Assembly (NCBI GenBank): GCA_951406725.2
Contig: OX597836.1
Coordinates: 37,882,001 to 37,946,000 of the forward strand
Direction of reading: 5' to 3'
Length of the DNA: 64,000 nucleotides
Source of the DNA: Octopus vulgaris
Taxonomy: Eukaryota
The notes below the pieces were generated by a model that worked only from the letters and a program-made list of their open reading frames with translations, was not told the DNA's origin and did no database searches. The translations under genes were made by a program, and so were the position numbers. This document shows, piece after piece, positions 1,671 through 11,479 of this stretch; the first letter of the stretch is position 1; each line of letters starts with the position of its first letter.

Positions 1671-2230
1671 AGGCGGTGAGCAGGCAGAATCGTCAGCGCG
1701 CCGTGTTTGATGCTTCGTGTTTTTTCCTCTGTGTGGGTAGAGTGGTTCAGGGTTGAATTTGCTTTGTATAGTTGTTTGGATTTTTGCTGTTCGCAGCGGT
1801 TCTGTTTTTTGAGAAATGGCAAGGAAGAACAAGCATTCTGACATCAGTGAGACGGACCTGTCGACTTCGGAGGCGGAACTGGCGAGAACGGTCAACAGAC
1901 TGGACATGGCGTTAGAAGGAAAAATGAATTACGCAGGAGTAATTAAGCCAACAAGTAAGGAGGTTAACCTTGCTAAGGTACCGGACGGCCAAAAATGGGT
2001 GAAAAATCAACACTTTATGGGAAATAGAGAAATCGGACTCGTTAGTATGTTGGGCAAAATGTTTTGTGGCATTTCGTCCGACTTTGTTTTGCATTCAAAT
2101 TCCATCGACTTTGCATTTCATCCTTTTAAGGTCGGTAAAATAAGTACCAGTTGAGCACTGGAGTCGATGTAATCGACTGATACACTCACCCCGAAACTAC
2201 TGGTCTCCTACCAAAATTTGAAACCAACAC
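1671..2230 (+). mobile_element. SINE-A copy interrupted by a short Tx1-like piece (5'UTR, ORF1 start, degenerate 3' tail)
   Basis: SINE head AGGCGGTGAGCAGGCAGAATCGTCAGCGCGCCG, then T-rich leader and ATG ORF 1816 MARKNKHSDISETD...NYAGVIK, then CTTTATGGGAAATAGAGAAAT, then the SINE resumes at 2036. Confidence 0.55.
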
Positions 2231-2472
2231 AACACCAAAATAGTTGCTGAATACAGCTAACGTAATTCGATACAGATAACGTAGAGCAAGAGTTCATGTC
2301 AGTTACTACTGCCGTCAACGATCAGGTAAATCATTTAAAACTGCGTTACCCTAATCACTGGTTGGTTGAAAAGAATGAATTCAGTTTATCTGTAGTTTAA
2401 ATATGTTGGTGCGAGTCCATTTCAATGGCTCGCCTCACAAATATGGTCGTTACAGTATATACATTATTCATA

Positions 2473-2675
2473 AGGCGGTGAGCTCGCAGAAACGTTAACG
2501 GTATTTCGTCTGTCTTTACGTCCTGAGTTCAAATTCCGCCGAGGTTGACTTTGCCTTTCATACTTTCGAGGTCGATAATTTAAGTACCAGTTGCGTATTG
2601 GGGGGGATCAATCTAATCGACTAGACCCCTCCCCAAAAATTTCGGGCCTTGTGCCTAGAGTAGAAAAGATTATTT
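2473..2675 (+). mobile_element. tRNA-derived SINE family A (representative of more than 30 copies or fragments)
   Basis: Head AGGCGGTGAGCTGGCAGAA, B-box-like GAGTTCAAATTCC, body GTCGACTTTGCCTTTCATCCTTTCGGGGTCGAT, tail GTAGAAAAGATTATT; recurs at 8500-8900, 16570, 26935-28580, 30330-30717, 35160, 41960, 44460, 58000, 62150. Confidence 0.85.
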
Positions 2676-3341
2676 ATATCTACACTACATTTTGACTGGT
2701 TTACTATATCTTCACCATCAATGTTTTATTTCTGGATGTGTATACTTTAATTCTAAAAACGTAGCCAGAGGGTTAGGACAGCACCCACAACCATTGCATG
2801 CCCTCTACGAATGTATACAGCGCTAGAATTGGTACGAACAAGAAGCTTTTATTTTGAAAGTAAGTGTATTAATTTTATCGCTGGCATTTGGATAATCTAC
2901 CAGTACTTGAATGGCTTTTGAACATTTCATTCACCTCCATTGCAATAATAATAAAGCTTTGAGCTGTCTTGTAAAAATTTAGTTATTACTGGAATAATTT
3001 TCAAAATTCCTTTCTTTTAAAGATTATTGCTAAGGACGACATTACACTTAGTTTAGAAATAGAGTTTCCTAGTTCGATTCCAGTCTGTCAATGTGTATAC
3101 ATCCAGGTATAATACATCTGATGACAAGTGGAAATTAATCTGACTATAATGTAATATAAATATTTTTAAAACACTTGCTGAAGAGGAGGCTGAAAATTTA
3201 CAAAATCTTATTTCTTCTCGGATATTTCGACATTATATAGAAAATAGTAGATTTTGTTGAGGATATTGTTTTATATAAAAATTATTATTAGCAAGGGATT
3301 CTAAGGTAATTTTTTTAATGTCAATTAGATGTCGGTATGTA

Positions 3342-3545
3342 CGAGGGGGTTCTAAGTAAAAAGAAAAATGTAGGAGGATCTCTAAATTATGATTTTATTC
3401 AACATATCCCCCCTCTCAAATTTAAATACTTATTGCAGCATTCCTTCACTTTTTCTAAGCCCTATTAAAAAATCTCGAAACGTTGGGACTCCAACAAGAC
3501 CTTTTGTGACACATTTGAAGCTAGGAATTGTTCGGCATCCCCTCG
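3342..3545. mobile_element. Mariner-type MITE
   Basis: TA|CGAGGGG ... CCCCTCG|TA termini with TA target duplication, about 204 bp, no coding capacity. Confidence 0.75.
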
Positions 3546-8924: not shown

Positions 8925-9185
8925 CTTTGACTGGCAGATTTTTTTAAATAATTTCTTTGTAACTAAACACTTTTAAACTTCGTATACTGGTAGTGTGTTA
9001 CATTAAACATATTTTTCTCTTGGCTTTTTTGAGAAAATTCTGTAGTTTGTAAGCTATTTGTTGTTTAATTTCTTGCATTTCGGCAATTTCAACCAATCAA
9101 TGACGTCTATTGAGGTGAATACAATATCTACCGTATTTTGTCAACAACATTTTCTGGCGGTGTCATATGAATTTGTCACTGTTAT
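8925..9185. mobile_element. MITE M1 partial, diverged copy
   Basis: GTAACTAAACACTTTTAAACTTCGTATACTGGTAG and CAACCAATCAATGACGTCTATTGAGG shared with 6147-6544. Confidence 0.8.
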
Positions 9186-10549
9186 TTATGTATTTGTGTA
9201 ATTGACTTAACTCTCCTCCGAAATCCGATAGTGCGTGTCTTTTTTAAGTATTCTTCCTTTTTTTTGTGCATAATGCTCACTGTTTTTACTATTTCTCAAG
9301 GCATTCAGCAACTGAAATCTTAATGGGTAAGCCTATAGGTGACTCTTGGTTTGGACTGCCCACAGCAACAAAATGGGGATTCCACATTATGACCCCCATT
9401 TCAGTTTTTTGTTTCTAAAGAAATAATTAGAAGATATTAAAACAATAATTTCTAACTTAAGGGCGAGTACATATATTTTGTGCGAAAAAACAGTCGATTA
9501 TATCGACCCAACTACTTAAAGTTTTCGAATGGAGGAAAGGGGAAATCAAGTGCGACGAAATTTGAATTCAGGAAGTCTAGAACTATATGTAAACAGTGCA
9601 AGACATTCGTATGGCACTAACTCTGCTAATCCACAGTTCTCATATAGAATAAAATAGTCCTTTCTAATTCTGGCACAAGGCCGGCAATTTTGAGGGTTGT
9701 GGGGAAGCCAATAACATCGGCTCCAGTGCTCAAGTAGTTCATATTTTATCGATCTCGAAAGAATGAAAAGCAAAGTCAACCTCGGCAGCGTTTGAACACA
9801 ACACTTAAAGAATTAAGTAATAATTTTTCAAAGATTTTGTTCAATATTAATTTTTTAGAAAAACTGTCAATTAAAACAATAGGGCGTTAACTTTTGTTCA
9901 TAATTCTGCAAATAATTAATTTGAATGAAGAATTTTTTATTCAAAGTATGTACAATATATTCTTGAATATCATTTACGTTCAGACTTGCAAAAAGTTTCG
10001 CGATTGATTTTTTGATGATATATATTTACTGCACTTCCGTGCTGTATTGTGCATCGACCAGTCATTGAACACTTCCAGTAGCTTATCACATTTTCTTCAG
10101 AGAAAAGATTGCTAGCACTTTACCCAGCCAATTTCAAGAGAAAGGGCATTCTATGGGTGGTCTCACATGGACAGCCCTTCTCACGGCGTGACCTAACTAA
10201 ATCAGAGACTGAAAGAGAGGGCGGAGAGAGAGGGGAGGGGGAGAAGAGTAGGAGGTGGAAGTGATTTTCAATATTTGAATGCTATTTTACTTATCAATAC
10301 CGGAAGGATAAAAGACAAATTTGGCTTCAGTGAGAGAACCGTGACAAATATTGGTTTCAAATTTTGGCTCAAGGCCAGCAAGTTCGGGTGAGTGTGTAAG
10401 TCGATTGCATTAGCCCCAGTACTCAGCCAGTAATTATTTTAGCAACACTGAAAGGATGAAGGGCAAAGTCGACCCCGGTGATATTTCAACTCAAAACGTG
10501 AAGACGGACGAAATGCCGCTAAGCATTTTACTCGGCGTGCAAACGATTC

Positions 10550-11097
10550 TTATTTCTTTATTGCCCACAAGGGGCTAAACATAGAGTGGACAAACAAAGA
10601 CAGACAAACGGATAAAGTCGATTACATCGACCCCAGTGCGTAACTGGTACTTATTTAATCGGCCCCGAAAGGATGAAAGGCAAAGTCGACCTCGGCGGAA
10701 TTTGAACTCCGAACGTAGCAGCAGACGAAATACCTATTTCTTTACTACCCACAAGGGCTAAACACAGAGAGGACCGACAAACGGATTAAGTCGATTACAT
10801 CGACCCCAGTGCGTAACTGGTACTTATTTAATCGGCCCCGAAAGGATGAAAGGCAAAGTCGACCTCGGCGGAATTTGAACTCAGAACGTAGCAGCAGACG
10901 AAATACCTATTTCTTTACTACCCACAAGGAGCTAAACACAGAGAGGACAGACAAACGGATTAAGTCGATTACATCGACCCCAGTGCATAACTGGTACTTA
11001 AATTTATCGACTCCGAGAGGATAAAAGGCAAAGTCGACCTCGGCGGAATTTGAAATCCGAACGTAACGGCAGACGAAATACTGCTAAATATTTCGCC
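10550..11097 (-). mobile_element. Trimeric SINE with a LINE-type tail, inserted into a SINE-A head
   Basis: Three ~180-bp units of SINE-A body plus tail TTTAGCCCCTTGTGGG(C/T)A(A/G)TAAAGAAATA; flanked by identical CGGCGTGCAAACGATTC at 10533-10549 and 11098-11114. Confidence 0.85.
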
Positions 11098-11479
11098 CGG
11101 CGTGCAAACGATTCTGCCAACTCAATGCCCCTAAACCGTGACACATATTGCAAATTATTCTATCTGGTGCTCGACCACTTCGCCGCCCACTTACAAATGT
11201 AGGCGGAATTAATTAGAAGTCTTCACAAAATACAAATGTCATCTGTAAAGTGGGTAAATAGTAAACTTTTTTAAAATTCCTAATTAATACTAAAACGTAT
11301 GAAGAGTTTCATAGGGCTTTATTGACATAGGTTTTTGAATTAGTTATTAGCTAAACTATTTGAACAGTGGTGGAAGCATTCGATGGCGTGCTGATTAAAC
11401 CAAACACTCTTCTTGTAGCTGGTATATATTTAAAAATAATTAAACGATGACAAGATACAGCAGTGCACAGACACGCATA

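Follow-up and report, generated by a model that had tools for sequence, protein, structure and literature searches.

LINE-tailed passengers recur at one base of a SINE head in Octopus vulgaris: probable target-primed insertion by a borrowed Tx1-type enzyme

Introduction

Why should inserts that end in the 3' tail of a long interspersed nuclear element (LINE) be found repeatedly at the same position in the head of a short interspersed nuclear element (SINE)? The question is raised by a 64,000-nucleotide stretch of Octopus vulgaris DNA (contig OX597836.1, positions 37,882,001 to 37,946,000; the whole stretch is hereafter called the window), in which a first-pass annotation had noticed two such inserts, near 1687 and 10550, and had attributed them to a Tx1-type endonuclease that uses the SINE as its target. 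We followed this up in the 2.8-Gb assembly containing the window; sampled loci carry L-numbers (e.g., L084, L311). The recurrence proved to be real and genome-wide, and the inserts are passengers: a SINE subfamily and several elements with only the first of the two LINE open reading frames (ORF1 and ORF2). We think it probable, though well short of certain, that these Tx1-tailed passengers reach the site GGC^AGAAWCG through target-primed reverse transcription (TPRT), using a borrowed Tx1-type ORF2 protein that prefers Y^RGWAW, with a precision likely sharpened by pairing between RNA and primer.

Results

Recurrence at one base of the SINE head

Two groups of SINEs are involved. The SINE-A family has an older part that is abundant and comes with two types of 3' end (A1 and A2), and SINE-B is a younger SINE-A subfamily, in which the own 3' end is replaced by the LINE-type tail. 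Exact matches to the tail pattern number 113,523 in the assembly, and approximately half of them are internal joints of 184-bp tandem units (53/104 sampled); the 3' terminus of the tail, ...GGGYARTAAAGAAAT, is common to the passengers. We describe the target as tRNA-like on account of two motifs, TGGCAGAATCG and GAGTTCAAATTCC, which we take to resemble the A and B boxes; ARAGORN found no tRNA genes, and an Rfam scan returned no matches. Folding of the tail was not used as evidence: the stem has a z-score of -3.5 in the tailed SINE (60 nt) and 0.07 in the tail of the LINE present in the window, and longer pieces gave -1.1 to -1.35.

The tail followed by the core of the SINE head within 30 nt occurs 1,435 times. 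Among the first 100 of these junctions, one gap length accounts for 86 and a shift by one base for three, the whole head is included in 11, and a count from the listing gave no junctions with gaps of 0-3 or 7-22. The tail plus GAATCGTTAGCA alone occurs 557 times, and the tail plus AGAAW occurs 9,136 times, compared to 228 for the matched control, tail plus ACAAW. Of 30 sampled tail-plus-AGAAW loci, 13 are heads (10 detected by script and three more by eye), which extrapolates to roughly 4,000 head junctions. The chance expectation, 1.2e-4 per insertion, follows from the 15 head sites on the two strands of the window (128 kb). The head was found at 6/51 unselected terminal SINE-B tails (p ~5e-17) and at 8/21 3' ends of the ORF1-only family (7/20 minus the query copy; p ~1e-26, computed as 8/22), a count that omits two more distant relatives and seven matches without a full 3' end. 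The flank of the tail is thus enriched for the head approximately 1000-fold beyond SINE abundance. The insertions at 42705 and 30718 lie at other sites, as the first-pass annotation had stated.

Most of these insertions are independent, and a single composite is not their main source. The SINE downstream of 78 SINE-B junctions belongs to A1 in 34 cases, to B in 18 and to A2 in 11, with 15 unclassed. Pairwise identity is 0.80 for downstream A1 and 0.77 for downstream A2 copies, compared to 0.89 among the first units of SINE-B and 0.75 among solo A1 copies; the hosts are more diverged than the inserts and are therefore older, and hosts that are both older and varied indicate that most junctions arose separately. 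Descent of all junctions from one composite master element was accordingly rejected as the main explanation. At least four distinct families with an ORF1 have their ends at the head site, and L411 shows two ORF1-bearing families stacked in a single host, itself flanked by a target-site duplication (TSD) of its own. In SINE-B, the A/T state of the two copies of the target window is correlated (12/15/5/26, p=0.023).

The two loci of the window

The insert at 10550 is 547 bp long and consists of three units, each a SINE body plus tail. The LINE-type tail is present as described; however, the content is SINE-B, and there is no LINE DNA. The insert is flanked by an exact duplication, AGAATCGTTTGCACGCCG (11115-11098 and 10550-10533, minus strand), which is 18 bp long, one base more than originally reported. 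Both copies contain TTT, a variant seen in only 2/170 SINE heads with their own 5' part and in 3/76 heads that follow a tail; the presence of such a rare variant in both flanking copies therefore supports the view that this is a true target duplication. The cut is in the A-box-like region of the SINE head, as had been proposed, although its position is GGC^AGAAWCG rather than GGCA^GAATCG. Around the host SINE there is a separate 17-bp TSD (one mismatch). Inside the array, the joints are at a second site, GGTATTT (see below), the final tail is the GGGCAAT variant, and both GGGT and GGGC tails are represented. In an empty-site comparison of this locus with public contigs, the matches were swamped by repeat copies.

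The insert at 1687 is a deleted copy of an ORF1-only family, comprising its first 303 bp and its tail. The leader, the ORF1 start and the degenerate tail had been recognized correctly, but the 17-nt windows on the two sides, taken for a diverged duplication, agree at only 10/17 bases, and the 5' copy is usually element-borne in this family. There are 14 other full-leader copies, with a SINE head directly upstream in 13; the 5' copy has TCAG in 10/14, versus 1/170 SINE heads, and the 3' copy has TTAG or TTTG. At L084 and L086 the head is at the 5' end, yet the 3' ends are not at a head. We infer that the ORF1-only RNA starts with a copy of the head and that integration often ends by annealing of this copy to the head of the host; the apparent 5' "TSD" would therefore often come from the element. 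Rare variants on both sides of the insert, as at 10550, are also present at L085 and L087.

Complete ORF1-only copies are ~1.6 kb long and contain ORF1-like frames, with no ORF2 match inside the element. The frames are 32-35% identical to ORF1 of an intact LINE described below, and the zinc knuckle is weak (E 0.027, below the cutoff). With ORF1 kept, ORF2 absent and a LINE-type 3' end, the element is similar to HAL1 (half-L1). Another ORF1-only family is present in three tandem copies within one SINE head at L412.

The first-pass annotation had also suggested that the site places inserts behind a promoter element for RNA polymerase III (Pol III). The head site lies within the A-box-like motif, so that an insert moves the B box away from it, and a T5-T9 run is located 16-17 nt into the leader in 7/7 ORF1-only leaders checked. 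T-runs of such length stop Pol III; therefore, Pol III read-through of the ORF1-only element is unlikely, and the suggestion is not upheld. SINE-B has its own B-box-like motif and so needs no borrowed promoter.

Second site, off-target insertions and tail variants

The same SINE contains a second insertion site, AGC^GGTATTT. Among 72 unselected junctions, 37 are at this site versus 4 at the head, and an A1 or A2 host follows in 9 of these 37; the rate for the tailed SINE is not fully separable from internal tandem units. At L408, an ORF2 fragment is found at the second site, and its TSD has a variant in common with the host.

Insertions of SINE-B outside of the two sites have TSDs at offset 0, 16-22 bp long, in 29/32 cases. 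Both hallmarks of TPRT, a TSD beginning at the 3' junction and 5' truncation, are found, including truncated copies with a TSD. The off-target motif, Y^RGWAW, is loose and fits both SINE sites. Position -1 is C or T in 27/32 cases, and position -3 is G in 6/8 AGA-type sites and A in 6/8 GG-type sites, in agreement with the two SINE sites, although these -3 counts are small and three AGA sites share one repeat. Microhomology at off-target insertions lies inside the TSD, so the matching bases pre-existed in the target.

The variant of the tail is coupled to the site. GGGC tails make up 52/58 junctions at the head (site 1), and GGGT tails make up 71/80 junctions at site 2 (p ~1e-21); the coupling persists at off-target sites (11/6 vs 3/18, p=0.002).

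Near-miss hot spots were found in other SINE-like repeats, GGTACTGGCA... and AGAAACTGAAAGAAG..., the first bases of which match the read-through sequence (L014, L017, L025; L026, L337, L347; window 42703). GTGTGTTTCTTAAA is a recurring flank after LINE and ORF1-only tails (L192, L203, L434), and at L434, a LINE, an ORF1-only element and another LINE form a mixed array.

Search for the driver LINE

The first-pass annotation had pointed to the endonuclease encoded at 31386, in the LINE of the window, as the nicking enzyme. In this LINE family, (ATT)n follows the element in 30/30 copies; therefore, this endonuclease is not a candidate for nicking the head, and it was rejected as the driver.

A young intact LINE family (ORF1 of ~445 aa, ORF2 of 1,128 aa) has nearly the same tail as the passengers and 13-21-bp TSDs in 10/20 copies. 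Since its insertion sites vary, the family (L307, L311, L319) is unsupported as a head-specific driver; it may still move the passengers. The copies at L307, L311, L318 and L319 (C1, C6, C10) are 97-99% identical with ORF2 open, and several are located within the 5' ends of sibling LINEs, with which they form head-to-tail arrays. L311 has the domains Exo_endo_phos, RVT_1 and zf-RVT in ORF2 and zf-CCHC in ORF1, and its best match among solved structures is L1 ORF2p (E 4e-67); the LINE of the window has the same ORF2 domains. L311 thus has the L1/Tx1-type architecture: an apurinic/apyrimidinic-type endonuclease (APE), reverse transcriptase (RT) and C-terminal zinc finger, with a zinc knuckle in ORF1. 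The Tx1 label is a provisional one, given on this architecture and the absence of a poly(A) tail; protein searches returned unnamed proteins and no named Tx1 reference.

Among 61 exact LINE-type tails, the head comes next in 0/24 RT-bearing copies, 3/6 ORF1-type elements, 2/18 SINE-B copies and 0/13 short pieces. A search for older loci started from an RT end that is fused to one of the ORF1-only copies. Of 30 older LINE loci, the head is the end point of two, the start of a Mariner transposase that of 11 and a C20 repeat that of six. The two ORF2-bearing pieces at the head site are degraded and are sisters in the RT tree, which is a sketch (tblastn pieces, midpoint-rooted, drawn without support values); L362 is marked "notail" in it because an insertion precedes its tail. 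The Mariner start is the target of another Tx1-like lineage; other Tx1 lineages thus have their own targets, so lineage-specific targeting is the local norm.

The Mariner-targeting lineage ends ~20 nt upstream of the transposase ATG (Pfam HTH_48) at L363, L365, L369, L371, L372, L375, L376, L379 and L381-L383. The six LINE copies with the same 3' flank on C20 (L367, L373, L374, L377, L385, L386; ~44.0-44.2 Mb) cluster in a tandem or segmental repeat.

Features of the window

The features discussed above are collected in Table 1. In addition, a MITE-like (miniature inverted-repeat transposable element-like) 410-bp element with ~30-bp terminal inverted repeats has at least seven copies in the window (6140-6548, 48168-48573, 49352-49771, 58957-59365, 59851-60270, 61533-61945 and 62806-63213), and fragments of another, unrelated-looking non-LTR (non-long terminal repeat) ORF are located at 37858-39506 on the minus strand.

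Table 1. Coordinates of the SINE, ORF1-only and LINE features in the window
Coordinates	Strand	Feature	Remarks
1654..1666	+	Probable 5' TSD of host SINE	Partner 2226-2238, 2/13 mismatches, by eye
1672..1685	+	Head of SINE, upstream of insertion point; of host or element origin	
1686..1703	+	5' copy of 18-nt target window, TCAG variant, probably element-borne	
1704..2006	+	5' 303 bp of ~1.63-kb ORF1-only Tx1-like element; remainder deleted	Leader with T-runs, ATG at 1816, ORF1-like start
2007..2034	+	Degenerate 3' tail of ORF1-only element	Limits approximate
2035..2052	+	3' copy of target window, TTAG type, diverged	
2053..2228	+	Remainder of older host SINE-A	
10337..10353	-	3' TSD of host SINE	Partner 11134-11150
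10354..10532	-	Older host SINE-A body and tail	
10533..10550	-	Exact 18-bp TSD, 3' copy	
10551..11097	-	Three tandem units of Tx1-tailed SINE subfamily	190, 173, 184 bp
11098..11115	-	Exact 18-bp TSD, 5' copy	
11116..11130	-	Host SINE head upstream of cut	
30195..30328	+	5'-truncated tailed-SINE unit joined to older SINE-A body at GGTATTT	
30718..35064	+	5'-truncated, frameshifted L1/Tx1-type LINE	APE from 31386, RT to 34795
42703..42840	-	Short LINE-tail fragment in different repeat, ~10-bp duplication	Left boundary approximate

Discussion

The passengers share one 3' tail, join the head at a fixed junction, produce TSDs of 16-22 bp elsewhere and reside in varied, older hosts. We propose that a borrowed enzyme would nick the bottom strand opposite GGC^AGAA, and the top strand ~18 nt downstream, and that the new strand would usually be finished by annealing of its copy of the SINE head to the head of the host. 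A copy resident in a head would be transcribed with AGAAWCG (or GGTATTT at the second site) directly after its tail, and these read-through bases would favour priming at matching sites, giving rise to stacks. Some copies indicate that composites have also moved as a block. The tail variant predicts the site, as expected if read-through RNA pairs with the primer, and the bias at positions -1 and -3 points also to the enzyme; we therefore favour a contribution of both.

Several observations weigh against this proposal. The young intact LINE family, with its near-identical tail, inserts at varied sites; none of the 24 RT-bearing copies among the exact LINE-type tails is at the head, and an intact head-targeting LINE was absent from 57 further stretches examined. 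The coupling of tail and site could equally reflect two driver LINEs, and it loses significance when only the unselected off-target sites are counted (p=0.10). Most private variants differ between the two "TSD" copies of SINE-B; of 18 irregular junctions inspected, nine are truncated at the 5' end and lack a host head upstream, and a single duplicated composite accounts for four loci. Specificity is weak as well: unselected terminal SINE tails are at site 1 in 6/51 and 4/35 cases (overlapping samples), and 7/21 ORF1-only copies end in GT-like repeats instead. According to the available text of PMC4494074, a Tx1 family is regarded as target-specific when >20% of its flanks are of one type; the ORF1-only family exceeds this value at site 1 (8/21), whereas the tailed SINE is below it in both samples. 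The targeting is leaky.

The alternatives differ in the role assigned to the enzyme. It is possible, though in our view rather unlikely, that RNA alone steers the passengers: a tolerant Tx1 ORF2 protein would nick many Y^R sites, only the pairing ones would prime efficiently, and the target would be inherited from the flank of the parent copy. This agrees with the contrast between RT-bearing copies and ORF1-type passengers among the exact tails, with TSDs of the same length at unrelated sites in the young intact family, and with the prediction of the flank by the tail variant; furthermore, one ORF1-only family has two flank types (AGAA and GTGTG), and microhomology falls off with distance from the junction, with 18/45 off-target tails beginning with three or more nucleotides of GGTATTT. 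However, the biased bases upstream of the nick (-1 and -3) are beyond primer pairing, and the two ORF2 fragments at the head site are sisters.

The opposite extreme, pure endonuclease specificity as in the first-pass annotation but of at least two lineages (for site 1, site 2 and GT repeats), each with its own tail variant, appears to us unlikely. Targets do track the RT lineages in the tree (ATT, Mariner, head), the ORF2 fragment of L408 is at site 2 with a TSD sharing a host variant, and the available text of PMC4494074 presents target choice as mainly set by the endonuclease. Such a model needs one enzyme per tail variant, yet GGGT and GGGC tails are found together in one array, and the graded, one-sided microhomology at off-target sites is explained less simply.

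The last alternative, that most junctions are hitch-hiking composites or template-jump chimeras stemming from a few block-copied fusions of tail and SINE, is very improbable and largely refuted: the host heads missing at half of the irregular junctions, the single composite ancestral to four loci and the host TSDs that flank whole composites are compatible with it, but the downstream SINEs, which predate the inserts, belong to at least three subfamilies (in 351 A1 pairs, none exceeds 97%), five full copies of one ORF1-only family precede five different SINEs, and both flanks of the inserts at 10550, L085 and L087 share rare variants.

We add a more far-reaching reading, which we regard as less likely than not. 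Passenger RNAs may have a target memory, the landing address being inherited from the bases after the parent tail; one promiscuous Tx1 machine might then serve several self-perpetuating loops (the SINE head, the second SINE site and GT repeats), and a SINE that contains its own target might seed new sites for itself and for the ORF1-only parasites. The hundreds to thousands of on-target and near-miss insertions, together with sister lineages directed to Mariner, (ATT)n and other repeats, represent a natural experiment on the relative shares of the endonuclease and of RNA-primer pairing in target choice. The targeting also explains nested arrays that complicate the annotation of octopus repeats.

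We found no description of a SINE-targeting Tx1 element in octopus in the literature searched, which did not extend to Repbase or to a 1994 paper on octopus SINEs. In its available text, PMC13282606 gives active L1-Tx1 families and no targets; its supplement and library may hold them. A SINE as a fixed landing site and a passenger containing the site itself are absent from the papers searched. Tx1L in Tx1D, Keno (U2) and Kibi/Koshi (microsatellites) likewise combine an APE-type endonuclease, target-primed insertion and multicopy target DNA (available text of PMC4494074, where a SINE is missing among the targets given), and the LINE family of the window, with its (ATT)n, resembles the microsatellite-targeting type.

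The closest parallel is provided by Tx1-Mar and SINEU of crocodilians (PMC4494074, available text), where Tx1-type LINEs and passenger SINEs also share a preferred site in another transposon, one target also has two hot spots, specificity also ranges from weak (13-23%, SINEU-1/2) to strong, and transcription from the flanking target sequence was proposed. The Mariner-ending octopus lineage parallels Tx1-Mar as well. The target of Tx1-Mar is a Mariner DNA transposon, whereas the octopus target is a putatively tRNA-like SINE; moreover, one octopus passenger is itself a subfamily of the target, so that new landing sites are made as it spreads, and ORF1-only passengers and a single-base offset distinguish the octopus system. 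The ORF1-only element is comparable to HAL1, which is also non-autonomous, keeping ORF1 and lacking ORF2 (PMC5753468, available text), but it comes from a Tx1-like lineage, bears a copy of the target head at the 5' end and has a site preference. Finally, for R1Bm and SART1Bm, the available text of PMC7265360 proposes that RNA at or after the 3' end anneals to the nicked strand and improves accuracy; there, annealing refines the site of a specific endonuclease in ribosomal DNA or telomeres, whereas in octopus its role would be to distribute passengers over alternative sites of a target that is itself mobile.

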